Shown piece by piece: positions 28,186 to 49,842 of a stretch of 64,000 nucleotides of DNA (position 1 is the stretch's first letter; every line of letters begins with the position of its first letter). Under the pieces are notes generated by a model. It worked only from the letters and a program-made list of their open reading frames with translations, was not told where the DNA came from and did not search any database. Both the position numbers and the translations under genes were made by a program. This DNA comes from an uncultured Chloroflexia bacterium (GTDB lineage Bacteria; Chloroflexota; Anaerolineae; Anaerolineales; UBA4823), in assembly GCA_963702535.1 (NCBI GenBank), contig CAVPDG010000004.1:94609-158608 (forward strand), read 5' to 3'.

Positions 28186-28196
28186 TGAAGGGTTAA

Positions 28197-28236: not shown

Positions 28237-28273
28237 CAAGGCTGCGAATTGCTCCTTCAGGATTTCGCAGATA

Positions 28274-28821: not shown

Positions 28822-28828
28822 GCAGGTC

Positions 28829-30067: not shown

Positions 30068-30169
30068 GCGTGAAACTCTGCCCCTTGTCGGTTAAATGTT
30101 CATTCGCAAGCAATTCGCGTGTGATCTGTTTTGCTTGTCGCAATAAGTGCTATCACGCTGGTCAGCAGC

Positions 30170-31534: not shown

Positions 31535-31598
31535 CTCAGTTCCTCCCATTGAGGCTTGTCCGCAACCCTCGCTCGCCGGTCTGATGGGTCATCTGGGA

Positions 31599-32897
31599 TC
31601 AATCCCCCGGCTGCTGCGAGGTGGTGCGCAGCCATTCATGCTCCACAGGCGTCGCAGCGGGCACGGAGGGTGGGAGCTGGCGGTGGAAGAAAATCCATAC
31701 CCCCGGGATCGCCATCAACCCGCTGGAAACGATCAGCAGTGTTTCGATGGGTACTACATCGGCAAGCGGTCCGAAGACCAGCATACCCAGCGGCATCACT
31801 GTGTTCATAATTAAGCCCTGCACCCCGAACACCCGCCCTTGCAGATCTGGCTCTACGATTTCTTGCAGCAGCGTGGTGGTGGATGCGCCAAAGAAGGGCA
31901 TCGGTAGTCCTGCCAGCGTCATGAAGACCAGGTAGACGATGAAATTCTGCGATAAACCCAGGGCGACGAACAGGATCGCCCACAGGATGCAGCTCAGCCC
32001 GATCGTGCGGAACCGGTTCTTGAACCCTCCCCAGGCGGTCATGATAAACCCACCCACGATCGAGCCGGCAAAGAAAGTCACCTCGTTGGCGGTCAGCCGC
32101 CACACCTCGTCGCCATAGGAGCGCGTCACCAGCAGCGGCGTCAGGAAAGCTACCGGAGCCACCAAGAAGAAGACGAAGGCAAAGAAGAGCAGCAGGTTCT
32201 TGATCTCCCGGTGCTGCCCGATATAGCTCAATCCCGCCTTGAGATCATCCATGTACCCGCTCGGCTGCTCGGCTGTCGCTTTTTGGTGCGGCGGCACTTT
32301 GAGCGCCAGCAGCAAGCCCACTGCCAGCAGGGCAGTGACCACGTCGATGAAGAAAATGGCTTCTAGCCGGGAAATGGAGAGCAAAGCGCCGCTCAGCACC
32401 GGCGTTACGATCATGATGAAGGGCTGGATCGTGCCGTTGATGCTGTTCACTTTGATCAATCGCTCTGTGGGTACGATCTGCGGCAGCATGGCATTGACCG
32501 CTGGTCCCTGGATGCCCGCGCCGATCGAACGAATTGCGGATACCAGGATGATCAGCCACAGCTCGCTGTAGCCCATCAGGAAGAATACCGCCAGTACCAG
32601 GGTGCTGGCAGCGGTGAGCAGATCGGAGGCGATGATCAGGAATTTGCGCGGGTAGCGGTCTGCCCACACCCCGGCGAAGAGCGAGATGGCGATCTGTGGC
32701 AAAAAACCCGCGATGGTGGCAACCGTCAGGATCGCCCCGGATTGCGTGACCAGGGTGATGTGCCAGATAATGGCATATTGCACCAGCATCGACCCGAATA
32801 GCGACAGGCTCTGGCTGGAAAGAAATATTGCGGTCTTTTTCTTCCAGTTTGCGAATTCTTCTGGTTCGCTGGAAAGGCTACCGGTAATCTCTTGCAT
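31599..32897 (-). CDS. MFS transporter (EntS/macrolide-efflux-like)
   Basis: About 12 predicted TM helices. LSLFGSMLVQYAIIWHITL, FAGVWADRYPRK. The likely start MQEITG at 32897 has AAGGAG 8 nt upstream. Confidence 0.85.
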   Translation of the reverse strand: MQEITGSLSSEPEEFANWKKKTAIFLSSQSLSLFGSMLVQYAIIWHITLVTQSGAILTVATIAGFLPQIAISLFAGVWADRYPRKFLIIASDLLTAASTLVLAVFFLMGYSELWLIILVSAIRSIGAGIQGPAVNAMLPQIVPTERLIKVNSINGTIQPFIMIVTPVLSGALLSISRLEAIFFIDVVTALLAVGLLLALKVPPHQKATAEQPSGYMDDLKAGLSYIGQHREIKNLLLFFAFVFFLVAPVAFLTPLLVTRSYGDEVWRLTANEVTFFAGSIVGGFIMTAWGGFKNRFRTIGLSCILWAILFVALGLSQNFIVYLVFMTLAGLPMPFFGASTTTLLQEIVEPDLQGRVFGVQGLIMNTVMPLGMLVFGPLADVVPIETLLIVSSGLMAIPGVWIFFHRQLPPSVPAATPVEHEWLRTTSQQPGD

Positions 32898-33177
32898 CGT
32901 GAAATCTCCTTGCAGGATGCGACCCGCTCCTGGCGCATCTCTTTCTTCCATTGCTGAAGGTATAGCGAAATTAATCCTATATAGGTGAAATTAGTACAAA
33001 TGTTCGAGTAATATACCCTTGCCGTGGCAATACGTCAAGGGCGATATCTTCTCTCTATGGGAAATCCCATTCATCTCCCGGCTTATATTAGAATAAAAAC
33101 GATATATTTTATCTTATTTTACCCTGGAAAGCGATCTTTTATTGCCATTGGCTTGTGGATGAGTGTTTGCTCTTTGC

Positions 33178-33885
33178 TCAATTGCCGTTCTCGATCTTCT
33201 CCACCAGCTCCCTCAGCGCTCCCAGGTGCTCGATCTCGAAGAACCGCTCGTTTTCTACCGGCGCCGGTCTCCTCTCGTGCGCCCAGGTCAGCTCGTGCGG
33301 CACGTAGGCTGCCCAGCCGCCCATTTCCAGCACCGGCAGGATGTCGGAGCGCATCGAGTTGCCCACCATCAGGAAGCCTTCGGGACGCAGCCCGTGCTTG
33401 CGCAGCAAGCCCGCGTAGGTCTCCGGGTTTTTGTCGCTGACGATTTCCACGTACCGGAAGTACTCCGCCAGCCCCGAAGCTGCAATCTTGCGCTCCTGGT
33501 CCATCAGGTCGCCCTTGGTGATCAGCATCAGCGTGTGGGTTTCTGCCAGACCTGCCACTGCCGCGTGGCTGTGGTCCAGCAGGCGCAGCTCATGCTCTGC
33601 CATCGCCTTGCCCAACGCCAGGATGCTTAAAATATCCTTCGTGCTCACCTTCCCAGCCGTCGCTTCGATCGCCGCCTCGATCATCGAAAGCGTGAAGCCC
33701 TTGATCCCGTACCCGTACGGGCTCAGGTTGTCGATCTCGATCCGGTGCAGCGTATCCAGCAGCGCCTGGCTCTCCACCCCGTAGGGGGCGATCAGCTCGG
33801 AAAGCGCCGCTTCGTTTTCTTTGTAGAAGATTTCAGAGTGCCATAGCGTGTCGTCGGCGTCGAAAGCGATCGTATCAAAATGCAT
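33178..33885 (-). CDS. HAD-superfamily hydrolase
   Basis: MHFDTIAFDADDTLW (DxDxT motif I), ITKGD (motif II/III context), MVGNSMRSDI (motif IV). Confidence 0.8.
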   Translation of the reverse strand: MHFDTIAFDADDTLWHSEIFYKENEAALSELIAPYGVESQALLDTLHRIEIDNLSPYGYGIKGFTLSMIEAAIEATAGKVSTKDILSILALGKAMAEHELRLLDHSHAAVAGLAETHTLMLITKGDLMDQERKIAASGLAEYFRYVEIVSDKNPETYAGLLRKHGLRPEGFLMVGNSMRSDILPVLEMGGWAAYVPHELTWAHERRPAPVENERFFEIEHLGALRELVEKIENGN

Positions 33886-33922
33886 CGAGGTCTCCCGGCT
33901 GAAGGATGATCATCGATTTTAT

Positions 33923-34145
33923 CGCTTTTTCCCCCTTTGTATTGCTTCTTACACCCGCGGTTTTTGCCTACAAAGCCCAGGCTTCGCTCGGCTCGTTGAA
34001 TTGCACCGTGGTTCCACTTCGGGCGTGCAGCGCCTCCAGCAGCTCCTTCAGGTAGGTTCTTGGCAGATCCGGTGAGAGATACACGGCTCCTTTGAATAGC
34101 TCCTTGTCATCTCTCAATACCCTCGTCCGGCGCGCCTCGCGCACG
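33923..34145. repeat. Left copy of a roughly 223-bp direct repeat (partner at 41920-42141)
   Basis: The hand alignment is gap-free with about 21 mismatches, roughly 90% identity. Both copies are in the same orientation. Confidence 0.85.
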
Positions 34146-34180
34146 CGCATTTTGGAAGCCATCCAATACGAGTGAGGCAA
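33968..34180 (-). pseudogene. Orphan 3' fragment of a B12-binding radical-SAM gene
   Basis: ...REARRTRVLRDDKELFKGAVYLSPDLPRTYLKELLEALHARSGTTVQFNEPSEAWAL aligns with the last roughly 58 residues of the intact gene 41965..43299. Nothing upstream of it is homologous. Confidence 0.8.
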
Positions 34181-34262
34181 CCCACTCAGATGAGCACTGA
34201 CGCCTGTCTTGAGATGGCTGATTTCTGTTCCCGCAGCCCGTGACGTTGGGGAAGAATCGAAA

Positions 34263-34282
34263 GGAGCCGGACCTCCGGCTCC
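34263..34282 (-). terminator. Rho-independent terminator of the fasciclin gene
   Basis: GGAGCCGG-(4-nt loop)-CCGGCTCC. On the minus strand it is followed by TTTCGATTCTTCC. Confidence 0.5.
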
Positions 34283-34326
34283 CTTCTCTAACTTACTGAT
34301 AAGATACTACCAATAAGCGATGGTTA

Positions 34327-35742
34327 TTAAGGCAACAGTACCGTATCGATCACGTGGATCACGCCGTTGGATGTTTCGATATCGGTAATGATCACCTGCA
34401 CGGTATCATTCAGATACACCTTGCCGTCTTTGACGGTGATCTTGATCTTCTCGCCTTCCAGGGCGGTGTCAACCATCTGTCCATCTAGCTGGACGACATC
34501 TGCAGCCATCACCTTACCAGGCACTACATGGTAGAGCAGGATATTCGTGAGGGTCTCCAGATTTTCCGGCTTGAGCAGGTCTTCCACGGTTCCAGCGGGC
34601 AGCTTGGCGAAAGCCTCGTCGGTGGGGGCAAAGAGGGTGAAAGGTCCTTCCCCTTTGAGGGTCTCAACCAGCCCGGCTGCCTGTACCGCAGCGACCAGGG
34701 TGGTGAAGCGACCGTCTGCTACAGCGGTATCAACGATATCCGAGAGCTTTTCCTCGGGGAGGAGCACTGCGTCAATCACGTGGATCACGCCGTTGGCGGT
34801 CTCGATGTCGGTGATGATCACTTCAACGTTCTCGTTCAGGTAGACTTTGCCATCCTTGACCGATATGTTGAGCGGGTTGTCCGCCAGAGCGGTGTCCGCC
34901 GTCTTTCCATCCAGGGTGACCACATCGGCTGCCATGACCTTACCGGGCACCACATGATATAGCAGGATGTTCTTCAGGGTCTCGATGTTCTCAGGCTTGA
35001 GCAGGTCTTCTACGGTTCCGGCGGGCAGCTTGGCGAAAGCATCGTCGGTGGGGGCGAAGACGGTGAAGGGACCTTCACTTTTGAGGGTGTCGACCAGCCC
35101 GGCTGCCTGCACGGCAGCCACCAGGGTGGTGAAGCGACCATCCGCTACAGCGGTATCAACGATATCCGAGAGCTTGGCGGGAGGCAGGAGCACTGCGTCA
35201 ATCACGTGGATCACGCCGTTGGCGGTCTCGATGTCGGTGATGATCACCTCAACGTTCTCATTCAGGTACACTTTGCCATCCTTGACAGATATATTGAGCG
35301 GATTGTCTGCCAGTGCGGTGTCCACCATCTTTCCATCCAGGGTGACCACATCGGCTGCCATGACTTTTCCAGCGACCACATGGTAGAGCAAGATGTTCTT
35401 CAGGGTCTCCAGGTTCTCGGGCTTGAGCAGGTCCTCTACGGTTCCGGCGGGCAGCTTGGCAAAAGCATCGTCGGTGGGGGCGAAGACGGTGAAGGGGCCT
35501 GCACTTTTGAGGGTGTCGACCAACCCGGCAGCCTGTACGGCAGCTACCAGGGTGGAGAAGCGACCATCAGCTACAGCCGTGTCGACGATATCCATAGGCG
35601 CTGGCATCTCGGTGGGAGGAACAGCGGTCGCCGTAGGAGCTGGCGGTTGGGTGGGCGCAGGTGTTGCTGCGGGGGCGCAAGCAGCCAAAACAAACGAGGC
35701 TACGAGCAGTACGAACAGGGTAACGATTGAAAAGCGTTTCAT
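34327..35742 (-). CDS. Lipoprotein with three tandem fasciclin (FAS1) domains
   Basis: The likely start [24 protein letters not shown] at 35742 is preceded by GGAGA, and the track ORF starts earlier in AT-rich DNA. There are three copies of [57 protein letters not shown]...[13 protein letters not shown]. Confidence 0.88.
34330..35600. repeat. Three tandem FAS1-coding repeats of about 420-426 bp
   Basis: Equivalent antisense ORFs start at 34547, 34967 and 35393. Long identical nucleotide runs are shared between the units. Confidence 0.8.
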
Positions 35743-35806
35743 TCTTATCTCCATTGTCCTTGATTTGTATTTATGTTGTATATGTATTGTACATATATCT
35801 AGACAT

Positions 35807-35834
35807 ATTATATACAATACCTATACAATGTCAA
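35807..35834 (-). promoter_or_regulatory. Candidate promoter of the fasciclin gene
   Basis: Minus strand: TTGACA (35829-35834), a 16-nt spacer, then TATAAT (35807-35812). The surrounding spacer is very AT-rich. Confidence 0.4.
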
Positions 35835-36007
35835 GCGTGTATTCGCTTTCTCATCAAACACTTATCCGGGGTCTATTATCCGGAAATCATCCAGCTAGTT
35901 CAGGAGGAATATCCATCCCTGGTACCCCATGCTTGCGGTAAAATCTTGATATAAGCGGATCGATATTTCGAGCACCAAGAATTTATCAAGGCATAAAGGC
36001 ACCCGAA

Positions 36008-37669
36008 TTGCATCCCCATACGTTTTCTATCCTTTTTGTGAACAATTTACGGAATCCTGGAGCAGCGGACCTGATTACCTACCTGGGACAAACCTCTGCT
36101 TGCGTGACTCAGCTACCCCATCTGCCGGACAACCTGGCATCATACCAGGTGATCGTCGTCGATCCATTTCATGTCAAAGCAAATGAGCTTCACAGGCTTC
36201 AGCAGTTTGTAGGCGCGGGTGGAGCCTGCCTGGGGATTACAACCACGATCCCGAAAGATGGCAGTGCAGCAGATCTCTTTGGGGCTCTTCCAAAAGAGGC
36301 TTTCCCAGAATGTGAAGTTCGCGTCTTGTTCACCAATCTGAGAAATCCGCTAGGAGTGCGACTGCCGGACGCTTTCTATGTAAGCGGCCCTTTTCTACCC
36401 CTGACCGTGCAGGATGACGATGTGGAAGTGGTCCTGTACGCAGATTGGCGCTATACCCACCAGGCTATGCTGACCTGTCGCTCCTTCGGTATGGGCACGG
36501 CAGCCCTGACCACCATCCAGGATCTGAGCCAACCCACATTCAGACGGATCATCTACCGGCTGCTGCGCCGCCTGGCCAGCATTGAAGAGTCCAACCAGCC
36601 CTTGCAGGTTGGACTGCTGGGGTACCCGCCTTCGGTTGGTGAATTGCACGCACAAGCCACGGCGTCAGGCACGCCAGGGCTCAAGCTGCGCACGATATGC
36701 GATCTCAGCCAGGGGCGTCTGGGGGCTGCCAAAGATGTATTCGGTTCTGGCGCACTACATTACACACATGACTTAAACGATCTGCAGAACGACCCAGACC
36801 TCGACCTGGTTATTGTTTCTACACCGCCCAACAGCCATGCAAGGCTGGCGTTACAAATGTTGGAAAGCGGCAAACACGTTATCGTTGAGAAACCACTGGC
36901 ACTGAAATCGTCGGAAGTGGACGCCCTTTGTGACCTGGCAGAGCGCAATCAACTGCTAATAGGCTGCCACCAGAACCGGCGCTGGGACGACGACTATCGC
37001 GCCATCAAGCTCGCACTGAACCAGGGTCTGATCGGCGAGTTGTTTTACATGGAAACTTTTATCGGAGGCTACGGGCATCCATGCGGGTTCTGGCATTCAG
37101 AGGAGAGCGTCTCCGGTGGCACATCTTTCGACTGGGGCGCCCATTACCTGGATTTGATGCTCGACCTGATGCCTGGCACAATATCTGAGGTATGCTGCAC
37201 ACGCCAGAAACGCGTGTGGCACGATATCACCAACGCCGACCAGGAGCGCATCCAACTGCGCTACGCTAAAGGATTCGAAGCTGAGTTTACCCATTCAGAC
37301 CTGGCCTTCATCCCGAAACCGAAATGGTATTTGCTGGGGACCCAGGGCACGATTGTTGGCAAATGGCGGGATATGACTATCTACGAAGTAGACCCACTGC
37401 ACTATTATCAAACGAGTGAGATACCACCGGCTGAGCTCGGCGCAGACTTAAGCGTGCGGCGCCTGCAGGGTGGGGAGCAGATTATCGAGCAGAGCCTGCC
37501 GAAGCCACCGAAATTAAACTTCCCTTTTCATTACAATCTGGCGGATCACCTTCTGCTGGGTGAGCCGCTGGCTGTACCGATCCAGCACACTGCCCGGGTG
37601 ATCGCAGTGCTGGAGACTGCCAATCGCTCGGCCGAGCAGGGCGGCTGCATAGAAAAAGTTGAGATATAG
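36008..37669 (+). CDS. Gfo/Idh/MocA-family oxidoreductase with an extra N-terminal domain of about 200 aa
   Basis: 553 aa. The Rossmann start is LQVGLLGYPPSVGELHAQA...DLVIVSTPPNSHARLALQMLESGKHVIVEKPLA. The N-terminal extension (ILFVNNLRNPG...VIVVDPF...) may be ThuA/amidotransferase-like, which is unverified. The TTG start is uncertain. Confidence 0.72.
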   Translation: MHPHTFSILFVNNLRNPGAADLITYLGQTSACVTQLPHLPDNLASYQVIVVDPFHVKANELHRLQQFVGAGGACLGITTTIPKDGSAADLFGALPKEAFPECEVRVLFTNLRNPLGVRLPDAFYVSGPFLPLTVQDDDVEVVLYADWRYTHQAMLTCRSFGMGTAALTTIQDLSQPTFRRIIYRLLRRLASIEESNQPLQVGLLGYPPSVGELHAQATASGTPGLKLRTICDLSQGRLGAAKDVFGSGALHYTHDLNDLQNDPDLDLVIVSTPPNSHARLALQMLESGKHVIVEKPLALKSSEVDALCDLAERNQLLIGCHQNRRWDDDYRAIKLALNQGLIGELFYMETFIGGYGHPCGFWHSEESVSGGTSFDWGAHYLDLMLDLMPGTISEVCCTRQKRVWHDITNADQERIQLRYAKGFEAEFTHSDLAFIPKPKWYLLGTQGTIVGKWRDMTIYEVDPLHYYQTSEIPPAELGADLSVRRLQGGEQIIEQSLPKPPKLNFPFHYNLADHLLLGEPLAVPIQHTARVIAVLETANRSAEQGGCIEKVEI

Positions 37670-37677
37670 GATCCGTT

Positions 37678-38691
37678 ATGGTTCGCTGGGGTGTATTAGG
37701 GACGGCTCAAATCGCAAAAATATGCGTGATCCCGGCTATCTTGAAGTCCGAGAACGGGGTGCTGCAGGCCATCGCCAGCCGCACCCTGGTGAAGGCTCAA
37801 GCACTGGTTGAGAAACACCGTCAAGGGGTTGCTTACGAGGGTTACGCTGCATTGCTGGAAGACCCTGAGATAGACGCAGTTTATATCCCGCTGCCCAATC
37901 AACTGCACAAAGAGTGGACGATCAAAGCCCTGGGAGCTGGAAAGCATGTCCTGGTGGAGAAGCCGTTTGCGATGAACGCCAGAGAAGCTGAAGCGATGGC
38001 GGAAGCCGCACAGCGCTATGGCCGCCTGTTAATGGAAGCCTTTATGTACCGCTTCCACCCCCGCAGCCAGCGTATCAAACAACTTGTGGATGAAGGTGCT
38101 CTAGGCCGGATCTCGCTGATCCGCAGTGCTTTCACATTCCCCGTGAAGCGCGATGGCAGCAATGAGCGTCTGTTCTTGCCAGAGATGGGCGGCGGCTCAT
38201 TATGGGATGTGGGCTGCTATGGGGTCAGCGTTGCCCGTTGGCTGCTGGGCGAGGAACCCACTACAGTCTCCGCACAGGCGGATTATAGCGAAAGCGGGGT
38301 GGATATCAATTTTGTTGGCACGCTGCGCTTCGTAAGCGGCGCGCTGGCAGTGGTTGAAAGCAGCTTTACCACCGCATTGCAGCAAACTTTTTCGGTCACG
38401 GGTGAAAGCGGCGCAATTGAGTTGCCCCACGATGCGTTTATCCCCTGGGAGAAAGACGCCACTTTCACCCTGCGAGGCGCCAACGATGAGCATGGGCAGA
38501 TCGTGACAGTTCCCGGCGCCGATGAATACCAGTTAATGATCGAGCACTTCGCAAATGCCGTGCAGGGTCATGTGCAACTGGCTATCTCCCCGGGGGGGAG
38601 TGTAAACCAGATGCGCATTCTGGATGCGCTGGCGCGGGCGGCGCGTTCTGGTGAAGTGGTGAAGTTAGGGGGTAGGGACTGGCCCAGTTAA
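37678..38691 (+). CDS. Gfo/Idh/MocA-family oxidoreductase
   Basis: 337 aa. MVRWGVLGTAQIAKICVIPAI, DAVYIPLPNQLHKEWTIKALGAGKHVLVEKPFA. Confidence 0.85.
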   Translation: MVRWGVLGTAQIAKICVIPAILKSENGVLQAIASRTLVKAQALVEKHRQGVAYEGYAALLEDPEIDAVYIPLPNQLHKEWTIKALGAGKHVLVEKPFAMNAREAEAMAEAAQRYGRLLMEAFMYRFHPRSQRIKQLVDEGALGRISLIRSAFTFPVKRDGSNERLFLPEMGGGSLWDVGCYGVSVARWLLGEEPTTVSAQADYSESGVDINFVGTLRFVSGALAVVESSFTTALQQTFSVTGESGAIELPHDAFIPWEKDATFTLRGANDEHGQIVTVPGADEYQLMIEHFANAVQGHVQLAISPGGSVNQMRILDALARAARSGEVVKLGGRDWPS

Positions 38692-38722
38692 AGATAGCTA
38701 TCGCTATACTGAACTTTGTGTA

Positions 38723-39202
38723 CTATGAGCTCGCCGTCTTATTCATAGTGGAATGTTCTTGGATAGCGTTGAAGAGAGCATCACCCTTCTCTTGAGAGTA
38801 AGCCCCTTCTGTCCGCCACAAGACGTTCCCTTGCCTATCCAGCACCAGCACCCAGATGGTGTCTTCATGGGGGATATCCAAAGCCTGCCGGAATGCTTTT
38901 TTATCAATGTAAAGGGTGACTGTCTTCTGGCGGGTGGTTTGGTCGGGAATACCTGCTCGCATCCCTTCGTTAAGGAAGGTCTGCGAAAAGAAGTTCATCT
39001 TGTAAATGACCGGGAGCTCGTAGAACTGCACTCCTGGAAAGGATTGCTCGAGCTGGCGAGCGGTGGGGACCCAGGAATCGACCAACGCTTGCTGCCATTG
39101 TTGAAAAGCAATAACAAGAATCTTTAACTCTCCTTGCAGATCATCCGGCAAGGTGACTTTCTGGCGCAGAAGATTAGAACCTGTGACTTGAGGAAATCTC
39201 AT
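38723..39202 (-). CDS. Hypothetical protein
   Basis: Intact ORF with protein-like composition. The likely start MRFPQV at 39202 has GGAG 8 nt upstream. No family recognised, though a thioredoxin-like fold without CxxC is possible. Confidence 0.5.
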   Translation of the reverse strand: MRFPQVTGSNLLRQKVTLPDDLQGELKILVIAFQQWQQALVDSWVPTARQLEQSFPGVQFYELPVIYKMNFFSQTFLNEGMRAGIPDQTTRQKTVTLYIDKKAFRQALDIPHEDTIWVLVLDRQGNVLWRTEGAYSQEKGDALFNAIQEHSTMNKTASS

Positions 39203-39295
39203 GTAATACTCCAACCAGTCTAATAACCACCAACTTATATTTTGTGGTACGCATCAATTTTAAAGGCAACAAACAAGGGTCAGCCTCTGCTTAAC

Positions 39296-39796
39296 TCAAA
39301 CGCCCCTACGGACAACATCTGGGTCAGCTACCACCCTGCCGCCGCGCACCGTTGCACCGATCACCAATCCTGCGCTAATTAATACCATATTTTTAAAGAT
39401 GTACTGCCCTTCCAGGGTCGGCGCATAGGGAAAGGCGGTAAACACTTCCTGTGGAAAGAGAAATATTGGCGAGATGGTTCCAAGCATCTGAAGGAACAAC
39501 AGCAGCAGCGTGGCGCGCATGAAAATACCAAATATAAGGCCCAGGCCAATCAGGCTTTCCCAGACCGCTAAGATAAGGATAGAAACTTCCGGTGCAATCA
39601 AGCCAAAGGTCAAGCGCTCGATCGTACGGGTTGCCAGGTCAGCAGCCGGGCTGAGACCAGGGAAGAACTTAAGGGCGCCAAACCAGAGAAAGACAAGCCC
39701 CATACTGATGCGGAGCAGTAGAATGCCGTAACGCGCCATCCATTGGGTAATCCGGGCATCCAAATAATCAAAAAGCGGGGTGATGTTTTGGGTCAT
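39296..39796 (-). CDS. DoxX/YkgB-like small membrane protein
   Basis: 166 aa with 4 hydrophobic helices. GILLLRISMGLVFLWFGALKFFPGLSPA resembles the DoxX-like/DUF417 families. Confidence 0.6.
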   Translation of the reverse strand: MTQNITPLFDYLDARITQWMARYGILLLRISMGLVFLWFGALKFFPGLSPAADLATRTIERLTFGLIAPEVSILILAVWESLIGLGLIFGIFMRATLLLLFLQMLGTISPIFLFPQEVFTAFPYAPTLEGQYIFKNMVLISAGLVIGATVRGGRVVADPDVVRRGV

Positions 39797-39847
39797 ATGA
39801 ATAACCAGTTCAAAATGTAGAAGAGGATATATTTATTTAACTAGAAC

Positions 39848-39934
39848 AGTATAATCCATAACTGTCGTTTTGTCAATATATTGTATATATATAATAGACA
39901 TTATATTGACAAATCAAAATAAATGCGATAAGAT
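39848..39934. promoter_or_regulatory. Back-to-back divergent promoters built on a 15-bp inverted repeat
   Basis: TTGTCAATATATTGT (39870-39884), 13 nt, then ACATTATATTGACAA (39898-39912), with 14/15 positions complementary. Each arm holds a TTGACA -35 box. The plus promoter is TTGACA 39906-39911, 17 nt, TAAGAT 39929-39934. The minus promoter is TTGACA (complement of 39871-39876), 17 nt, TATACT (complement of 39848-39853). Confidence 0.5.
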
Positions 39935-39967
39935 AAATCTCAGCAAAATCCTGATGGCTACTAGGAT

Positions 39968-40603
39968 GTGACTATGAAAACCGCACTCATTTGGGGCGCG
40001 GGTGGAGGAATAGGCCGGGCAATCGCCCGCCGATTAGCCAGAGAAAACTGGAAAATCCTGGCGGCTGGACGGAATTTAAATTCCTTCACCGATCTCACCG
40101 ATTTCGTCTACGATGTCGAATTGAGCGACGCTTTTTCGGTACAGTCGGCTATCACTTCTATCAGCCAAGAGGTGAACGAGGCGGACCTTTGGGTATATGC
40201 CGCCGGCGACATTGCTTCGCTGCGAGTCAACGAGATGAGCCCACTCGACTGGCAGCGTATTATCCAGGCTAACCTGACCGGAGCGTTCCTGACCACCCAT
40301 TATTCCTGGCCGCTGCTCTCAAAGGAAGCTCACCTTTTTTACCTGGGAGCGGTCAGCGAACGCATGCGCCTGCCAGGGTTATCGGCCTACGCCGCGGCTA
40401 AAGCTGGCCTGGAAGCTTTCGCCGACGTGGTGCGTAAGGAAAGTCGGCGCAAGGTTACCGTTGTGCGTCCCGGGGCAGTAGATACCAGCTTTTGGAGTGA
40501 AGTCCCTTTCAAACTACCTGCCCACCACCTGAAACCGGAACAAGTTGCCGCCCGGATCATCCAGGCTTATACCGAGGGACACCAGGGACAACTGGACATA
40601 TAA
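39968..40603 (+). CDS. Short-chain dehydrogenase/reductase (SDR)
   Basis: ALIWGAGGGIGRAIARRLA (TGxxxGxG-type), catalytic YAAAKAGLEAF (YxxxK). An ATG at 39974 is an alternative start. Confidence 0.85.
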   Translation: MTMKTALIWGAGGGIGRAIARRLARENWKILAAGRNLNSFTDLTDFVYDVELSDAFSVQSAITSISQEVNEADLWVYAAGDIASLRVNEMSPLDWQRIIQANLTGAFLTTHYSWPLLSKEAHLFYLGAVSERMRLPGLSAYAAAKAGLEAFADVVRKESRRKVTVVRPGAVDTSFWSEVPFKLPAHHLKPEQVAARIIQAYTEGHQGQLDI

Positions 40604-40702
40604 AGGGTGATATGCACATCTTTTTGCGTGAGTATAGTAGAAGTTAACACTGCCCTTCAGGATTTTAGACGACGCAATGAATAACGATAAGGAACAATTC
40701 AA

Positions 40703-41287
40703 ATGATCTATTCCCGCACATTCGATATACTAGGAATCTCGGGTAGTCTACGCCAAGCGTCTTACAACACTGCTCTATTGAGGGCGGCTGAAGGTCTTAT
40801 GCGTACCGATATGTCCATGGAAATTTTTGACCTTTCGCCCTTGCCAATGTTCTCCCAAGAACTCGAGAATCCATTTCCGGAATCAGTGGTCCATTTTCGC
40901 ACCCTGCTGGCACAAGCAGATGCTGTATTGATCGCCGCACCTGAGTATAACGCTTCAATCAGCGGCGTCCTAAAAAACGCTATCGATTGGGCATCTCGTC
41001 CGCCGCAGAATCCATTGAACGGCAAGCCTGTAGCCATTATGGGAGCCAGCAAAGGCAATTTTGGTACGCTGAGAGCCCAATTGCATCTGCGCCAGATATT
41101 GACACACGTTGGCGCTTTGCCGCTTGGTAAGCCTGAAGTATTGGTTGCGCGTGCCGAGCAGGTATTCAACGCCGAAGGGAAACTGGTAGATCCAGCGACG
41201 GGCGGCTATCTTCAAGATTTACTTACCGCCCTGGCTAGTTGGATTCAGCTTGTAGAGGGCGCAACTGGCTCTCTCGTCAGGAGATAG
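40703..41287 (+). CDS. NAD(P)H-dependent FMN reductase
   Basis: 194 aa. ILGISGSLRQASYNTALLRAA, IAAPEYNASISGVLKNAIDWASR. Confidence 0.85.
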   Translation: MIYSRTFDILGISGSLRQASYNTALLRAAEGLMRTDMSMEIFDLSPLPMFSQELENPFPESVVHFRTLLAQADAVLIAAPEYNASISGVLKNAIDWASRPPQNPLNGKPVAIMGASKGNFGTLRAQLHLRQILTHVGALPLGKPEVLVARAEQVFNAEGKLVDPATGGYLQDLLTALASWIQLVEGATGSLVRR

Positions 41288-41407
41288 CCTTAACCCGGGC
41301 TAGTAAATCTGCTCTTCCTGGAGCACCAGCTCTTTGTCTGGCAACCCCTGGCTGAGAAATTACAACGCAACTATCTATATAAATACTAGACAATATATTG
41401 ACAATTA

Positions 41408-41436
41408 CTGATTTTATTGTTATATTGAATTTAATT
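41408..41436 (+). promoter_or_regulatory. Candidate promoter upstream of two small ORFs
   Basis: TTGACA (41408-41413), a 17-nt spacer, then TATATT (41431-41436). It is embedded in TAGACAATATATTGACAATT, which is 18/20 identical to the site at 39895-39914. Confidence 0.45.
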
Positions 41437-41468
41437 ATGTTATCAATTCGGAGAAGTGGTGGAGAAAT

Positions 41469-41648
41469 ATGAACAACTACATGCGAATCAGCAAAATTAC
41501 GATATTAATTGCAGCCGGTATGTCCTTCTTGCTATCTGTTTATCTGTGGTTCACCGGTGACAAAGAAACCGGCCTGTTTGTAGGCATCTGGGTGCCATCG
41601 ATCCTGTCCTTTGGCGCCTTAATGCATTCTGGAAGAAGTGCAAAATGA
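41469..41648 (+). CDS. Unlisted small membrane protein (59 aa, two predicted TM helices)
   Basis: GGTGGAG lies 5 nt before the ATG. Translation: MNNYMRISKITILIAAGMSFLLSVYLWFTGDKETGLFVGIWVPSILSFGALMHSGRSAK. It falls below the 60-aa cutoff of the ORF track. Confidence 0.45.
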   Translation: MNNYMRISKITILIAAGMSFLLSVYLWFTGDKETGLFVGIWVPSILSFGALMHSGRSAK

Positions 41649-41752
41649 ACGAAACGCTTCTTTTTATTTTTGGCTTTATCGCAACGATCGTGGCAATCGG
41701 CCCATTGGTGATTGCAGGCATCAGCGAACAACGATCAAAAAAAGATAGATGA
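41645..41752 (+). CDS. Unlisted small single-TM protein (35 aa), start overlaps the upstream stop (ATGA)
   Basis: Translation: MNETLLFIFGFIATIVAIGPLVIAGISEQRSKKDR, a hydrophobic helix with a basic tail. The ATGA overlap with the preceding ORF suggests translational coupling. Confidence 0.35.
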   Translation: MNETLLFIFGFIATIVAIGPLVIAGISEQRSKKDR

Positions 41753-41919
41753 AACCACTTTGCAGACACACATGACCAACCTCACGAAGTAAATGTTGTA
41801 GACAAGTTAGATATTGATTTAGATAAGCGCCAGGAGATGATTGAACCCCTCATTGCATAATTGGCCGACAATTTGGTCATATTCAGCTTGATCAAACAAG
41901 CCCATTGGAACGTTCTTAA

Positions 41920-42141
41920 CGCTTTTTCCCCCTTTGTACTGCTTCCTTCACCTGCGGTTTTTTCCTACAAAGACCAGGCCTCGCTCGGTTTGTTGAATTG
42001 CACCGCGGTTCCAGTTCGGGCGCGCAGCGCCTCCGGCAGCTCCTTCAGGTAGGTTGTTGGCAGGTCCGGCGAGAGATACACGGCTCCTTTGAATAGCTCC
42101 CTGTCATCTTTCAATACCCCTGTCCGGCGCGCCTCGTGCAC
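41920..42141. repeat. Right copy of the roughly 223-bp direct repeat (partner at 33923-34145)
   Basis: It covers the last roughly 58 codons plus about 45 nt of 3' flank of the intact radical-SAM gene. Confidence 0.85.
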
Positions 42142-43299
42142 GATATCCTGCAAACCTGTCCACAGGTACACGCCGATCGTCACCCACACTCCATTGGGGA
42201 TTTCATAATTGTCCAGCACACTCAGCGTCTCGGCGATGGTTTCGGGCGTCTCTCCCGGCGCTCCCAGCATCAGCGAGACCCCAAAGGGGATCTTTGACCG
42301 GCTCAGCGTTCCCAGCGCTTCCCGCACCTGCTGCGGTGTATAGCCCCGTTTCATCCGCTTCAGCATGCTCTCCGAAGCCGACTCGACCGAGAGATTGGCA
42401 TAGAAGCACCCCGATTCTTCCATCAGCCGGCAGAAGCTGTCCGTGATCTCGATCGGTCGCAGATCCCCGCTTCCCCATTGAAGTTCCGCTTTTTCCATGA
42501 TCAGTGCCCGCAGGATCGCTTCCGCGTGCTTGCGCGGCGCGTTGAAATTATTGTCGCAAAACATCACTCTGCGGCTACCCGTGCTCTCCAGGATGTGCCT
42601 GGCTTCAGCCAGCACCCGTTGTGGGCTTTTCAGCCGGTAGCGCTTGCCTTCTAGTTTGCTGTATGGGCAGTATGTACAGGCGAAGGCGCAGCCGCGTTTC
42701 GTCAGGATGGCAGGCGTGATCTTCCTCTGGGCATACGGCCCCCAATCCAGCAGGTCATAAGCCGGCAGAGCTTGCTGATCCAGATCTAGCACCGGGCGAG
42801 GGGGTGTCTCCTGGTAAATTCCATCCTTTCTTGCCACGCAGCCCGGCGCCGCGGTTAGATCCCCTCCCTCCACCATCAGTTTCAGGAATAGCGGAAAAGC
42901 ATCTTCCCCTTCACCGCGGATGCCGTAATCCAGATCCAGGTAATCCAGCCAGTCCCGCGCAAAGTAATTAAAGCCCGGTCCGCCCAGTACGATCCGGGCG
43001 GGCGAGACCTGGCGGATGGTATCGGTGATCTCCTTCACCCTCGGGCGCAGGTCGCTGTGCCGCGTCCCCAGAGGCGCTCCGCGGTCAACTGTGTCCCCAA
43101 ACACCAGCCGGATGGATACCCCTACCACGTCCGGTTGGAAAGCCTCCAGTCTGTTGCTCAATTCGCCCTTCAGGTCGTCGGCGAACAGCCGATCGTAGAT
43201 ATGCACTTCGTGTCCCGCCTGGCGCGCCGCTCCTGCCACGTAAACTGGCCCACTCGGAGCCGCAGGCTGTGTGTTGGATGATACGATAAGTACTTTCAT
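41965..43299 (-). CDS. B12-binding-domain radical SAM protein
   Basis: 444 aa. N-terminal Rossmann-like cobalamin-binding-type region (MKVLIVSSN...VVGVSIR...IVLGGPG). The radical-SAM cluster motif is RGCAFACTYCPY (CxxxCxxC). The start overlaps the upstream gene by 4 nt. Confidence 0.9.
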   Translation of the reverse strand: MKVLIVSSNTQPAAPSGPVYVAGAARQAGHEVHIYDRLFADDLKGELSNRLEAFQPDVVGVSIRLVFGDTVDRGAPLGTRHSDLRPRVKEITDTIRQVSPARIVLGGPGFNYFARDWLDYLDLDYGIRGEGEDAFPLFLKLMVEGGDLTAAPGCVARKDGIYQETPPRPVLDLDQQALPAYDLLDWGPYAQRKITPAILTKRGCAFACTYCPYSKLEGKRYRLKSPQRVLAEARHILESTGSRRVMFCDNNFNAPRKHAEAILRALIMEKAELQWGSGDLRPIEITDSFCRLMEESGCFYANLSVESASESMLKRMKRGYTPQQVREALGTLSRSKIPFGVSLMLGAPGETPETIAETLSVLDNYEIPNGVWVTIGVYLWTGLQDIVHEARRTGVLKDDRELFKGAVYLSPDLPTTYLKELPEALRARTGTAVQFNKPSEAWSL

Positions 43300-44132
43300 G
43301 CTCCACGCTTCTCGATTTCGAGTCGGTATTCATCCAGACCGTACCCGCTCTCGATCAATTCGATCAGTTTTCTTGTGAAACGCGTCGCCGGCGCCCCATC
43401 GATAACATCGTGGTCGAAGATGATCGTCAGGTTCATCAGCTCGCGCAGCGCGATCTTCCCTTCCACTTCTACCGGCTTGCGGGCGATGCCTCCCACCACC
43501 AGGTCGAGCACGTGCGAGCCGTTCGAGATGCCCCACCCGCTGTGCCCCTTGCCGAACATGCCCACCGATGAGATCCCCACCGTACCCGCCAGCGCCGTGA
43601 CGATCGTCGGGTCGCGGCGCTGCATCGTCCGGAAAGTGGACTTGAATAGGCTGGATAGCGGCCATGGCAGCAGCAGCGCCGAGCGGAACCAGGAGGCTTC
43701 TTTAGCTTCCGGGGTTTCCTGTCTCGCCTGCACCGCCCGGATCTCCTCGTGAATCTCGCTGAAGCTCTTGCGGTTGGCGCCTCGGATGACGTGCCCTCTC
43801 AGGATGAGTTTCTCCCCCTTCTTGAGCTCGATCATGAACCCCACGTCCACATCATCGAACATCACCACTTTTCTACGACCCTTCCGGTATGCCTGTACCG
43901 TTTTGTCCTCATCCACCGCTCGTGCCAGGCACCCGATCAGGTATCCTGTGAAGGAAAGCGTCTCGCCTGTGATGGCTTTGTATTCCTCGATGAAGTCCCT
44001 GGCGGTAGACACATCCACTTCCAAAAGGGCATACATGCTGTGCCGGTCCGCTTTTAGCTCCTGGAAAGCCGCCATGCCCCGCCGCTCTGCTGAGAGCTCA
44101 ACAACCTGGTAGGTTCCGCTTGTTTTATTCAT
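43296..44132 (-). CDS. Stand-alone 2-oxoacid-dehydrogenase E2-type acyltransferase catalytic domain (no lipoyl or subunit-binding domains)
   Basis: C-terminal active-site context LTIIFDHDVIDGAPATRFTRKLIELIESGYGL (the DHxxxDG motif of the CAT/E2 fold). The start MNKTSGTYQVVEL at 44132 was chosen by alignment with the paralog start MSTNTLTYQVVDL. The track ORF instead extends through the tandem repeat to 44207. Confidence 0.8.
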   Translation of the reverse strand: MNKTSGTYQVVELSAERRGMAAFQELKADRHSMYALLEVDVSTARDFIEEYKAITGETLSFTGYLIGCLARAVDEDKTVQAYRKGRRKVVMFDDVDVGFMIELKKGEKLILRGHVIRGANRKSFSEIHEEIRAVQARQETPEAKEASWFRSALLLPWPLSSLFKSTFRTMQRRDPTIVTALAGTVGISSVGMFGKGHSGWGISNGSHVLDLVVGGIARKPVEVEGKIALRELMNLTIIFDHDVIDGAPATRFTRKLIELIESGYGLDEYRLEIEKRGA

Positions 44133-44133
44133 T

Positions 44134-44208
44134 TTTGTTCCTCTCAAGTTTGATCCTCTCAAGTTTGTTCCTATCAAGCTTGTTCCTCTCAAGCCTGTTT
44201 GTGTCACG
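44134..44208. repeat. 15-bp tandem repeat, 4 good copies plus 1 degenerate, filling an intergenic spacer
   Basis: Plus-strand units: TTTGTTCCTCTCAAG (44134), TTTGATCCTCTCAAG (44149), TTTGTTCCTATCAAG (44164), CTTGTTCCTCTCAAG (44179) and CCTGTTTGTGTCACG (44194). On the coding (minus) strand each unit reads CTTGAGAGGAACAAR. Confidence 0.9.
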
Positions 44209-45718
44209 CTCGTTTACGATTTGCCCGCAAGATCAGCGCGCTGCGCAGCACAGCCCAGAGACCGGCAAAACTACCGCAGGACAGGGCGATGCACACATAA
44301 TCTGGTGCAAAGAGCCGCATGAACCCCCGCAGCTTGCCCAGCAAGGGCGCCAGTGTCAGCGCCGTAAGCAGGTTGGGGATGAACGGCAGCAGGATATACT
44401 GCCGCCACATCCGCCCGCGGCTGGGGCGCGAATCGGGCTGGCTGTTCCAGTGCTGCAGCAGCAGCGCTGTTGCAGCCACGCCCAGCATTTGCAGCGCCGG
44501 GATGAGCAGCATGCCCCGCATCACCCACGGCGCCGCGCCCAACATCTGCCGCGCAGGCGCCTCTCCCGCCAGCAATTGCGCTGCCAACATGCCCATCTCG
44601 TCAAATGTCATCTTCATCATCGCGTGGTTAGCATTGAAGAGCAATACGATACCTTTCCTTTGGTCAGGTACGAGCGCCATGAACGCCCCAAAGTCGGGGA
44701 CGACGCCGCTATGCGAGACGATCCTTGACCTGCCGGCCTCCTGGTCGATCCATCCCATGCCGTAGGACCCCAGCGCCATACCCATTTCCTTGATCTCTGC
44801 CGCTCCTCTATGCATCGCTTGAATGCCTGCTTCCGAGAGCAACTGTCTTCCTTTGTATCTCCCTCTGTTGAGCTGTGCGATCAGGTAGTGCGCCATGTCT
44901 TCGGCGCTGCAGATCAGCTGTCCGGAGGGCAGCGAGCCAGGTGGGACGCGCAGCTCGCCTGCGGCGACGGGAAATCCAAACCAGTAGCGGTGCCCCACCG
45001 CCAGCCCGTCCTGTTGCGCCGCGGCTTTCGATGTATAGCTATGCCGCATCTCCAGCGGATCGAAGATGTGTTTCTGGATATACTCGGCGTACGCCTCGCT
45101 GCTGGCAGCTTCCACGATCAGACCCAGCACGTTGTAGTTGGTGTTGCTGTACTCGAATTTCTCGCCCACCTTGCGCCTCAGCTTGAGCGTAGCCAGCGAG
45201 CGCACTTGCTTCTCGGTTGCCTCAGTTTGCTCCTCCAGGTCGCTGAGGCTTGCCAGTCCAAGCGACGTGGGCAAGCCGCTCGTCTGGTTGAGCAGGTGGC
45301 GCACCGTCATCTGCGCGGACGCCTGCGGGTCAGCCACGCAGAACCAGGGAAGGTAGCGCTGCACTGGGGCGTCTAGCTCCACCTTCCCTGCCTCCACCAG
45401 TTGCATCACCCCCAGCGCCGTGATCGACTTGGTCAGCGAGCCGATGAAAAAAGGCGTCTGTGGGTCAGGTGCCTCACCGCCCGGACTCCTCCGTCCGAAT
45501 CCCCGCAGGTGCGTGATCTGCTCCCCCTCCACGATCGCCAGCGCGACGCCCGGTATCTTAAATCGCCGCATTTGCTCTTCAACGAAGGCGTCAATGGTGG
45601 CGTAGTTCCTGCGGCTCGGCGCCGGATGAGCTGGGGCGTTTGCCGCGCGCAGCCGGTAAAGCACCCCCAATGCAGAGCAAGCCAGCAGAATCGGGAAAAG
45701 AAATGGTTTAATTCGCAT
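44204..45718 (-). CDS. Beta-lactamase-fold serine hydrolase with C-terminal TM helices
   Basis: 504 aa. Signal-like N-terminus, SxxK motif in FFIGSLTKSITALGVMQL, and a YSNTNY (YxN) motif. The last roughly 130 aa form several hydrophobic helices. Confidence 0.85.
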   Translation of the reverse strand: MRIKPFLFPILLACSALGVLYRLRAANAPAHPAPSRRNYATIDAFVEEQMRRFKIPGVALAIVEGEQITHLRGFGRRSPGGEAPDPQTPFFIGSLTKSITALGVMQLVEAGKVELDAPVQRYLPWFCVADPQASAQMTVRHLLNQTSGLPTSLGLASLSDLEEQTEATEKQVRSLATLKLRRKVGEKFEYSNTNYNVLGLIVEAASSEAYAEYIQKHIFDPLEMRHSYTSKAAAQQDGLAVGHRYWFGFPVAAGELRVPPGSLPSGQLICSAEDMAHYLIAQLNRGRYKGRQLLSEAGIQAMHRGAAEIKEMGMALGSYGMGWIDQEAGRSRIVSHSGVVPDFGAFMALVPDQRKGIVLLFNANHAMMKMTFDEMGMLAAQLLAGEAPARQMLGAAPWVMRGMLLIPALQMLGVAATALLLQHWNSQPDSRPSRGRMWRQYILLPFIPNLLTALTLAPLLGKLRGFMRLFAPDYVCIALSCGSFAGLWAVLRSALILRANRKRA

Positions 45719-45805
45719 CGGTCGGCTCTCCGTTTTGCTCCTTCTCAGAAGCTATCTTCCACTTTGGTGCATCCTGCCGGGTCCTCCAGCAGTGGATTAT
45801 TCGCC

Positions 45806-47116: not shown

Positions 47117-48490
47117 ACGCCCTTCGCCCGTAGTTCCTGCATGGCGGATTTATGGGTCTCGATCAGCCGGGTGATGTCTTCATCGGTGTGCTCGGTGCAC
47201 ATGAACCCATGATGGGGCGGGATGTGCAGCCCGTTCTTGCGATACAACAGCCGTAAGCCAACACTGGCGAACGGATTTCCCCGGTGCGCATCGCGGACGT
47301 TGTTGATCGGTCCACGGGTGGCGTGCATCCAGAACATGGAACCAGCGCCGATGGCAAGCGCTGGATAATCTTCTTCCTGGGCAAAGCGGTTGATCTCAGC
47401 CCGGAAGCGGTCGCCCATGGCGTTAAGGCGGGTGTATAGCTGTGGCTCACGGCTCAGCCGCCGTAGTACAGCGGTCCCCGCCGCGATGACCAACGGGTTG
47501 CCATTGAAGGTGCCCGCCACCAGGATGGATTCCGGCTGTATATCGTATTCCATCAGGCGCATGGCTTCGGCGGTCCCACCCACGGCGCCTACGGGAATGC
47601 CGCCTCCAATGATTTTCCCGTAGGTACTGACATCCGGGATGACCCCGTAGAACTCTTGAGCTCCGCCCGGCGCCAGGCGGAAGCCGGTGATCACCTCGTC
47701 GAAGATGAGGAAAGCCCCGATCTCGTGGGTGATCCGGCGTAACTCGGTTAAGGAAATCCCTGCCAGCGGGTATCGAGCCCCCGGCGCCCTGCACGGGCTC
47801 GATGATCACGCCAGCCAGCCGGTCTGCATGTTGCCGGATTTTATCGAAGGCCGCGGGATGATTGAAGGGCAGGACAATGGTATCCTTCCAGGCGCCTTCC
47901 GCAAGTCCAGGGCTCTCGGGGATAGCGATGGGATCTTCGATGGGTCCAAACGAGCTGGCATTCGGGCTGGGTCGGCCGAGGCTGACGGCCAGCAGGTCAT
48001 GCGTGCCATGATACCCACCCTCGAACTTGGCGATGAGCGGCCGACCAGTGGTGGCACGCGCCAGCCGGCAGGCATACATGGTCGCCTCGCTACCCGAGTT
48101 GCACAGGCTCACCTTATCTACACCCGGCACCATGTCGCAAAACAGCCTGGCAAACTCATGCTCGTGCACATGGCACTGACCATAATGTGTCCCGTCTGGC
48201 AGCGCCTTCCGGATTGCTTCTTGAACATCGTCTGGCGTGTTGCCGAGGATCATGGTCGAGAAGCCAAGCATGAAGTCCAGGTATTCATTGTCATCCGCAT
48301 CCCAAATCCTGGCGCCTCTCGCCCGCTTAACCACCATTGGGAACGGGTCTGCCAGCCGGAAGATGCTGCCCACGCCCCCCGGCATCACCGTGCGGTTACC
48401 CTGCCAGATGGCTAATGACTTCGGGCATTTCGCCATGATCTCGCTGCGATAAGCGTTGAGCAGCTCCTCGACCCTTGCCTTGGCAACCAT
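47110..48490 (-). pseudogene. Class-III aminotransferase (glutamate-1-semialdehyde aminomutase-like); one frameshift
   Basis: 47447..48490 is good through ...VIIEPVQGAGGSIPAGRDFLN. 47110..47694 continues with ELRRITHEIGAFLIFDEVITGFRLAPGGAQEFYGVIPDVSTYGKIIGGG (PLP lysine context). The shift is at about 47745-47750. Confidence 0.85.
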
Positions 48491-49829: not shown

Positions 49830-49842
49830 TTCAGCCTCTTTC

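Follow-up and report, generated by a model that had tools for sequence, protein, structure and literature searches.

We analyzed a 64,000-nt stretch (here, the window) of contig CAVPDG010000004.1 from an uncultured Chloroflexia bacterium, in which a block of genes of ∼7.8 kb lies between two direct copies of the 3′ end of a gene for a B12-binding radical-SAM protein. The gene itself, identified by Pfam, is intact (positions 41965 to 43299, minus strand; 444 amino acids [aa]). It is the last member of a minus-strand cluster of aminotransferase, M28 peptidase, beta-lactamase-fold, acyltransferase, and radical-SAM genes that is kept in relatives, and its top 120 homologs, which are 70 to 89% identical, are almost all exactly 444 aa long. 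The right copy of the repeat (41920 to 42142, minus strand) is the functional end of this gene and abuts the block; it comprises the last 59 codons (58 sense codons and the stop at 41965 to 41967, plus one extra base) and 45 nt of 3′ flank. The left copy (33923 to 34145, minus strand) is an orphan tail that also holds the last 59 codons (33968 to 34145; 58 sense codons and the stop) and 45 nt of native 3′ flank (33923 to 33967), but it lacks the gene body and runs on into the native upstream region of a HAD-family hydrolase gene. The two copies align without gaps over 223 nt at an offset of 7,997, with 21 mismatches in 222 to 223 nt (90.6% identity), a match far above chance and the sole long repeat pair across the region; a weaker extension continues on the 3′-flank side (33914 to 33922 versus 41911 to 41919; 6 of 9 positions identical). 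Eleven changes are specific to the left copy, 7 of them GC-to-AT transitions. A sequence-only reading of this stretch had described an ungapped repeat pair in the same orientation with about 21 mismatches and about 90% identity, the right copy being the tail of an intact gene and the left an orphan remnant; our alignments bear this out, as they do the peptides quoted there, and place the end of the right copy one base later, at 42142.

Empty sites in related genomes

The HAD-family hydrolase gene (33178 to 33885, minus strand; 235 aa) is the native downstream neighbor of the radical-SAM gene, as judged from Pfam and from empty-site loci in relatives. Empty sites, in which the radical-SAM gene is followed by the same 235-aa HAD gene within 70 to 103 nt, were found in four relatives (L031, L030, L020, and the P0001 contig), which supplies the comparison that the sequence-only reading had proposed as a check. 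The P0001 contig (89% amino acid identity) has a gap of 70 nt between the two genes, and in L020 (82% amino acid identity) an AlkZ-like gene comes next. The most informative empty site is that of L031, which is 94.4% identical to window positions 27026 to 34145 and 95.8% identical to positions 41916 to 48507, and which is entirely without window positions 34146 to 41915. The orphan stop codon lies 82 nt from the HAD start in the window, and the corresponding spacing in L031 is 83 nt. In these alignments the left copy adjoins, on its left side, the native HAD upstream region, common to L020, L030, and L031, whereas the right copy adjoins the block on that side. Because four relatives have the radical-SAM gene directly followed by the HAD gene, including one with ∼95% identical flanks, the ∼7.8-kb block is a true strain-variable insertion, polarized by the empty sites. 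A scan of GTDB genomes with the radical-SAM protein recovered relatives of at most 77% identity with unrelated downstream genes, and these are informative only for the conservation of the upstream cluster. No record of the exact radical-SAM product was recovered.

The empty sites bear on the possibility that a second radical-SAM gene arose by plain duplication and then decayed, or that the block is ancestral and has been lost from the relatives. Paralogy does occur nearby, where two acyltransferase genes form repeat families D4 and D6. A clean deletion of the block would also result from recombination between the repeats, and the tail of L031 does correspond to the 5′ part of the right copy joined to the 3′ part of the left copy. 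However, no second radical-SAM copy was present in any relative examined, the block was not found at the radical-SAM site in 4 close relatives or 17 GTDB relatives, and its native context lies elsewhere, as described below. Homology to the radical-SAM gene also stops abruptly at 34145, and for this reason we discarded the idea that the left copy is left over from a full paralog. We regard both versions of this explanation as very improbable.

An assembly artifact, in which a chimeric contig joins two organisms, is scarcely credible. The window resembles a long-read metagenome assembly and includes a frameshifted aminotransferase gene at 47.1 to 48.5 kb, and the G+C content of the block differs from that of its flanks. 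Nonetheless, after 7.8 kb of block the contig is back at the original locus, with a second 223-bp copy that is 9% diverged, an arrangement that no assembler would create; the block has no repeat in common with the flanks that could mislead an assembly; and all of its genes are intact.

Two further observations concern the native genes at this site. About 60 nt upstream of the HAD start codon (TACAAAGGGGGAAAAAGCGATAAAATCGATGATCATCCTTCAGCCGGGAGA; 33886 to 33945, minus strand) are well conserved in L031, L030, and even L020, while the remainder of the HAD intergenic region is hypervariable; these ∼60 nt, of which the first 20 belong to the repeat, may be regulatory. The cluster of B12-binding radical-SAM, acyltransferase, beta-lactamase-fold, M28, and class III aminotransferase genes (41965 to 49234) is conserved in several Chloroflexota metagenome-assembled genomes (MAGs; L002, L006, L009, L014, and L031), with its gene order rearranged in the window, and the radical-SAM protein also occurs in MAGs of Acidobacteria and Spirochaetota.

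Gene content and chromosomal origin of the block

The block consists of two modules, delimited by comparison with related loci and annotated by Pfam. The left module (34255 to 39243) encodes a protein with three fasciclin domains (34327 to 35817, minus strand), two Gfo/Idh/MocA oxidoreductases (36008 to 37669 and 37678 to 38691, both plus strand), and an ATP10-like hypothetical protein (38723 to 39214, minus strand). The right module (39244 to 41914) encodes a DoxX protein (39296 to 39796, minus strand), an SDR (39968 to 40603, plus strand), an FMN reductase (40703 to 41287, plus strand), and two overlapping mini-open reading frames (mini-ORFs) of 59 and 35 aa, both hydrophobic (41469 to 41648 and 41645 to 41752, plus strand), and it ends in a truncated homolog of a small ORF of the donor-type loci described below. 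The gene list of the sequence-only reading was thus recovered by Pfam, with the three fasciclin domains and the ATP10 likeness of the hypothetical protein as added detail. Between the left repeat and the first base with homology to these loci lies an orphan segment of 109 bp (34146 to 34254), for which no match was found in the window, in 120 fetched loci (blastn and tblastx), or by six-frame Pfam searches.

The block has the composition of neither flank. Its G+C content is 0.521, compared with 0.607 in the left flank and 0.578 in the right flank, and G+C content at third codon positions is 0.50 to 0.67 in its genes versus 0.68 to 0.83 in flanking genes, so that the compositional break anticipated from the letters alone is present. 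The claim of near-consensus TTGACA promoters fared less evenly: four TTGACA/TATAAT matches of 11 to 12 of 12 positions do lie in the AT-rich spacers, but the total count is not above that of shuffled sequences (10 versus 6.7 ± 2.8). A perfect 12/12 match (TTGACA-16-TATAAT at 35807 to 35834, minus strand) overlaps the TTG at 35817 that was mechanically assigned as the start of the fasciclin ORF; translation probably begins further downstream, the L021 homolog having 474 aa against 496 aa in the window.

A search with the FMN reductase of the block recovered many relatives at 89 to 100% identity, whose gene neighborhoods were informative; no record of the exact product was recovered for P0121, an FMN reductase with 100% identity. 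Window positions 34255 to 41914 are collinear with a chromosomal segment of L021, on a contig of 527 kb, at 87 to 92% nucleotide identity, and the same holds for L022; across the chromosomal neighborhoods sampled in other metagenome contigs, collinear identity ranges from 87 to 97%. In L021 and L022 the block-type segment is flanked by an esterase gene on one side and by a small ORF, ferritin, and ferrochelatase genes on the other, and these loci carry no radical-SAM tail and no recombinase within 10 kb. The left module, collinear with L021, L022, L023, and L032 at 87 to 90% identity, is only ∼88 to 90% identical to anything sampled. The right module is closer to known sequences: positions 39244 to 41825 are 95.4 to 97.3% identical to the short contigs L023 to L028, with a synonymous divergence (dS) of 0.065 over the FMN reductase and SDR genes, and the module is 88 to 92% identical to L021, L113, L115, and L119.

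The two ends of this collinearity fall at defined positions. On the left, homology to the donor-type loci ends at the fasciclin terminator hairpin, at position 34255. On the right, it is lost at exactly 41914 in five independently sampled donor-type loci that represent four distinct sequences (L021, which equals L116; L113; L115; and L119). Since this end point falls inside the small donor ORF, the block is a truncated piece of a longer chromosomal region. The right joint itself (41915 to 41919) has the sequence CTTAA, which agrees with the chromosomal flank TTTAT at 3 of 5 positions and with the donor at 0 of 5. Just before it there is a possible microhomology of 3 to 4 nt (CGTT versus CGAT); the donor reads ...AACGTT, the chromosome CGATTTTAT, and the window ...AACGTTCTTAA, in a comparison that covers the right joint alone. 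In a scan of metagenomes with the second Gfo/Idh/MocA protein, three close loci were recovered, none with a junction like that of the window, and none of 21 contigs with the 59-aa mini-ORF had it adjoining a radical-SAM tail.

The home neighborhood of these genes is conserved but plastic, with modules present or absent in L029, L033, L114, and L117, and the donor-type loci carry a DPRP (photolyase-related) gene that has no counterpart in the window, where its place is taken by the junction at 39243/39244. The flanks of the segment in L021 and L022 have a G+C content of 0.53 to 0.54, like that of the block. Low G+C content is partly intrinsic to the right module, because it is equally low (0.49) inside L029, whose flank is at 0.61; for the same reason we rejected base composition as proof that the right module is foreign.

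Several details of the block stand apart from the question of its arrival. At 39243/39244, identity to L023 jumps from ∼90% on the left to ∼96% on the right, and the block may itself be a recombinant of two lineages. The product of the 59-aa mini-ORF is 100% identical in L021, L025, and L029 and occurs on at least 21 contigs with very variable neighbors (FMN reductase, ferritin, DPRP, and AbiEii/antitoxin genes), and in sequence the two mini-ORFs look like a conserved pair of small membrane proteins.

The sequence-only reading had interpreted the locus as the footprint of an element that integrated into the 3′ end of a gene and supplied a replacement end, while observing no integrase, transposase, or tRNA. 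Much of this picture held: the insertion lies at a gene 3′ end, empty sites exist, the composition changes at the block, and the functional tail departs from the empty-site allele over its distal ∼95 nt, which is compatible with a partly supplied replacement end. An integrative element as the agent was not supported. None of the ORFs from 28.8 to 48.5 kb, nor of those scanned elsewhere within 15 to 63 kb, had a recombinase domain in Pfam searches, and the suggested search for decayed recombinase fragments, carried out on stop-masked six-frame translations of the unannotated stretches of the block, returned no recombinase or transposase at an E value of ≤0.1. The window has no tRNA and no match to Rfam families, and no inverted repeats of at least 40 nt (12-nt seeds) were found anywhere in it. 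The features of a transposon are accordingly missing, as there is neither a transposase nor terminal inverted repeats and the duplication is 223 nt rather than short. Apart from a generic fasciclin match, the block resembles no plasmid or phage, and its collinearity with ordinary chromosome begins 5 nt from the right repeat and stops 109 nt short of the left one. From its sequence, then, the block does not look like a recognizable mobile element.

These results also weigh on the related possibility that a site-specific tyrosine or serine recombinase placed the block between attL and attR sites, now seen as the repeats, and was later lost, leaving a remnant like a cis-mobilizable element (CIME), or acted in trans. 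The footprint does have the shape of icd/icdC around e14, with an intact gene whose tail is partly replaced and an orphan tail at the far end; the crossover falls in a single interval of 8 nt (see below); and CIMEs by definition lack integration and transfer genes while retaining attL and attR (PMC6323972). We consider this explanation quite unlikely all the same. Collinearity with a nonmobile chromosome to within 5 nt of the right repeat leaves no room for the arms or backbone of an element, in addition to the missing recombinase or remnant of one in the block, the donor-type loci that have none within 10 kb, and the lack of plasmid or phage similarity. Among 12 relatives, none has an integrase immediately after the radical-SAM gene, where the ORFs are variable (flavodoxin, hydrolases, and regulators), and no cognate integrative and conjugative element (ICE) or integrative and mobilizable element (IME) was found at the same site in the limited sample of 17 GTDB loci, 4 close relatives, and the donor-type loci.

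Mosaic structure of the repeats and divergence of the surroundings

We compared the two repeat copies with the empty-site allele of L031, numbering the repeat in gene orientation. Across positions 1 to 119, the right copy agrees with the empty-site allele at 9 of the positions where the two copies differ, the left copy agrees at 1, and there is none where neither does; across positions 128 to 203 the relation is reversed, with 2 sites at which the right copy agrees, 7 at which the left copy agrees, and 2 at which neither does. The difference is significant over the 19 informative sites (Fisher P = 0.0055; P = 0.02 in a permutation over any change point) and can be described by a single switch point in the 8-nt interval at positions 120 to 127. 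Because the right copy matches the empty-site allele in its 5′ part (positions 1 to 119) and the left copy matches it in its 3′ part (positions 128 to 222), the empty-site allele equals the 5′ part of the right copy joined to the 3′ part of the left copy.

Pairwise distances follow the same division. Over positions 1 to 124, the right copy, L031, and L030 are mutually 2 to 4 nt apart (2 between the right copy and L031), and the left copy is 10 from each; over positions 125 to 177, the right copy, the left copy, L031, and L030 are 4 to 9 nt apart, with the right copy the most distant. The right copy has 7 to 9 specific changes over positions 128 to 203. Between the two copies, dS is 0.12 and nonsynonymous divergence (dN) is 0.09, a dN/dS ratio of ∼0.74. 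R29 and K14, found in the outgroups L020 and P0002, are retained in the left copy, while T29 is common to the right copy, L031, L030, and P0001. No homolog combines the residues specific to the left copy, and we rejected it as the tail of a known functional allele. The two copies have in common one derived base in the 3′ flank (CAAAAACC versus CAAGAACC in L031, L030, and L020).

Repeats that flank an insert, a reciprocal mosaic, and a single switch point are all features of a Campbell-type integration, although selection could mimic part of the mosaic. In such an event a circle carrying the block and one tail that was already ∼8% diverged, possibly the loop-out product of another lineage, would have entered by a single RecA-type homeologous crossover at repeat positions 120 to 127, so that the right copy would consist of a resident 5′ part and an incoming 3′ part and the left copy of an incoming 5′ part and a resident 3′ part; the divergence of the repeats would then be preexisting and not a product of decay. 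Consistent with this, both copies switch at one common point, the 5′ part of the left copy keeps the outgroup states R29 and K14 where the right copy, L031, L030, and P0001 have T29, and specific changes are more numerous in the 3′ part of the right copy (7) than in the neutral 3′ part of the left copy (2). The divergence between the copies, 9.4% or ∼0.065 per site per branch, is higher than the clonal dS that separates the window from L031 (0.03 to 0.045), and it also exceeds what the block dS of 0.065 to L023 to L028 would allow if the repeats had begun identical (P ∼0.02). On the other hand, this route involves extra steps, since an earlier illegitimate origin of the tail-plus-block molecule is still required, and the common derived base in the 3′ flank (CAAAAACC versus CAAGAACC) is a point against it. 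No circular junction or donor allele was found. Each of the tests that separate an in situ duplication from a prediverged tail (rates, polarity, and allele states) is modest (P ∼0.02 to 0.08) and sensitive to assumptions about constraint and rate. We hold a Campbell-type origin to be possible but doubtful.

Divergence from L031 is also raised in the genes next to the insert. There, dS is 0.15 for the acyltransferase gene, 0.155 for the radical-SAM gene, and 0.096 for the HAD gene, compared with 0.027 to 0.045 for genes further out (the beta-lactamase-fold, M28, and MFS genes), so that the adjoining genes are 2 to 5 times more diverged. On the strength of this rise, the insert sits in a locally diverged tract of ∼11 kb (roughly 33.0 to 44.0 kb). 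Compared with its 89%-identical homolog in L030, the radical-SAM gene is itself a mosaic produced by recombination, with dS of 2.0 over nt 1 to 180, 0.15 over nt 180 to 360, 0.49 over nt 360 to 900, and 0.145 over nt 900 to 1335.

Other differences between the window and its relatives lie further from the insert. A second 2-oxoacid_dh-like acyltransferase gene (48512 to 49234) is a paralog of that at 43296 to 44207 (repeat families D4 and D6) and is absent from L031, and an abhydrolase region (49390 to 51100) is 72% identical to L031 between flanks of 96 to 97% identity and looks like an allelic replacement. Relative to L020, the window has extra genes for an MFS transporter and an FAD/BBE oxidase (30076 to 33190), which are present in L031, and a stretch with Chlam_PMP repeats and PKD domains (∼25010 to 27870); the neighborhood is a hotspot of strain-level indels. 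The class III aminotransferase gene (47110 to 48490, minus strand) is split into two overlapping ORFs (47110 to 47694 and 47447 to 48490) by a frameshift, the L002 homolog being in one frame, and this may be either a long-read sequencing error or a real pseudogene. A direct repeat of 300 nt (2694 to 2993 and 3432 to 3731; 93% identity, 738-nt spacing) lies inside a long ORF.

Route of insertion and comparison with known systems

Taken together, the empty sites, the chromosomal collinearity of the block, and the mosaic repeats lead us to favor, as the probable explanation, a recombinase-independent insertion-duplication of ordinary chromosomal DNA that was later reshuffled by homologous recombination. 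With no recombinase at hand, the structure must have begun with two nonhomologous joints ∼223 bp apart. In a first step, a foreign segment would have joined the chromosome at two illegitimate joints, one located 45 nt beyond the stop codon of the radical-SAM gene, where a 4-nt microhomology is possible, and the other 59 codons before the stop, leaving the stretch between the joints present on both sides of the insert. This duplication is the only outcome that leaves the radical-SAM and HAD genes both intact. Illegitimate and homology-facilitated integration of foreign DNA is documented (PMC6382021, citing PMC122324). In a second step, for which the pattern of changes is visible in the repeats, the right copy would remain the end of the gene while the left copy, having no gene body, would drift. 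In a third step, filled and empty haplotypes would exchange by homologous recombination in and around the repeat, and the reciprocal mosaic with one switch point and the locally diverged tract of ∼11 kb may be read as its traces; gene gains have been associated with recombination tracts in flanking genes (PMC12359135).

This genome may have inherited the filled haplotype, acquired it through crossovers in flanking DNA, or gained it when a looped-out circle integrated in the Campbell manner, and in this last respect the Campbell route overlaps with the third step of the scheme. A de novo, vertical route needs only a single founding event, and one neutral rate of ∼0.065 per site fits the changes in the left copy, the synonymous changes in the right copy, and the changes in the 3′ flank of the right copy. 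We consider the vertical and Campbell routes of roughly equal likelihood.

Several points weigh against an insertion-duplication without a recombinase. Imperfect direct repeats of a gene 3′ end are the classic signature of integrase-mediated integration, as with e14 and phage 21 at icd, and an integrase may have been lost or may have acted in trans, the negative search covering one window of 64 kb. A one-step target duplication of 223 bp without a transposase, proposed here from the arrangement of the sequence, is unusual. The 109-bp segment at the left joint, having no match, leaves that joint without a donor comparison. Both junctions are known from a single assembled contig. The polarity of the differences between the copies can also come from selection, because constraint on the functional copy is high over the first 120 nt of the tail but not over the last codons and 3′ flank.

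A more speculative extension, which we think rather unlikely, is that the islet loops out as a circle through its own repeats and re-enters any genome with the conserved radical-SAM gene by one RecA-type crossover. If so, the duplicated 223-bp tail would act as portable homology, and the block would be a cargo-only islet that moves between strains or species without a recombinase of its own; one cycle of loop-out and re-entry would then have left behind the shared switch point and the outgroup-like allele seen in the inner repeat halves.

By class this is a known kind of event, the strain-specific acquisition of chromosomal genes, and it is otherwise ordinary turnover of the flexible genome, seen in a single assembly. 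Its value is as a clean natural example, from an uncultured population, of ordinary chromosomal genes inserted between conserved genes without mobile-element machinery, and it offers an empty site in a near-conspecific, identifiable donor-type loci, junctions at base-level resolution, and a diverged tail that records both the joining and the later exchange. It also carries a warning, in that a direct repeat of a gene 3′ end is usually taken as proof of an integrase-borne element, a reading that here fails the test that defines it.

Among known systems, the closest in outward form are e14 and phage 21 in icd of Escherichia coli, where the insert lies at the gene 3′ end with a diverged orphan tail at the far end, and where the tails recombine into a chimera when the insert is lost (PMC13626634; Hill et al. 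1989, PMC210168). As in those cases, a protein-coding gene stays intact with the insert at its 3′ end, and a diverged orphan tail marks the far end of the insert; however, e14 and phage 21 are prophage-like and encode their own integrase, whereas this locus has neither a recombinase nor phage or ICE genes, and its insert is chromosomal DNA that occurs elsewhere in other contexts. The locus resembles a CIME in having cargo between direct repeats at a gene 3′ end with no integration or transfer genes, in keeping with the definition in PMC6323972, but CIMEs derive from decayed ICEs or IMEs and need a cognate ICE at the same att site; none was found here, and no sign of element ancestry is seen in the block. 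Another parallel is with insertion-duplication by a Campbell-type single crossover and with homology-facilitated or double illegitimate recombination during DNA uptake, described in PMC6382021 (citing de Vries and Wackernagel 2002, PMC122324) and in PMC12359135 (citing Hulter and Wackernagel 2008), with a duplicated homologous segment that flanks heterologous DNA, a reciprocal mosaic, possible microhomology, and no dedicated recombinase; most of what is known of these events comes from laboratory transformation of Acinetobacter, Streptococcus, and Pseudomonas, while ours is read from sequence comparison in an uncultured lineage. Flexible islets likewise share with this locus a strain-variable insert between conserved genes, raised divergence in the adjoining genes, and neighboring indels and allelic replacements (PMC12359135), although they are not usually bracketed by a long duplication of the tail of a flanking gene. 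Mechanistically, the closest counterparts of this locus are insertion-duplication or illegitimate recombination, together with the exchange of flexible islets through recombination in flanking genes.

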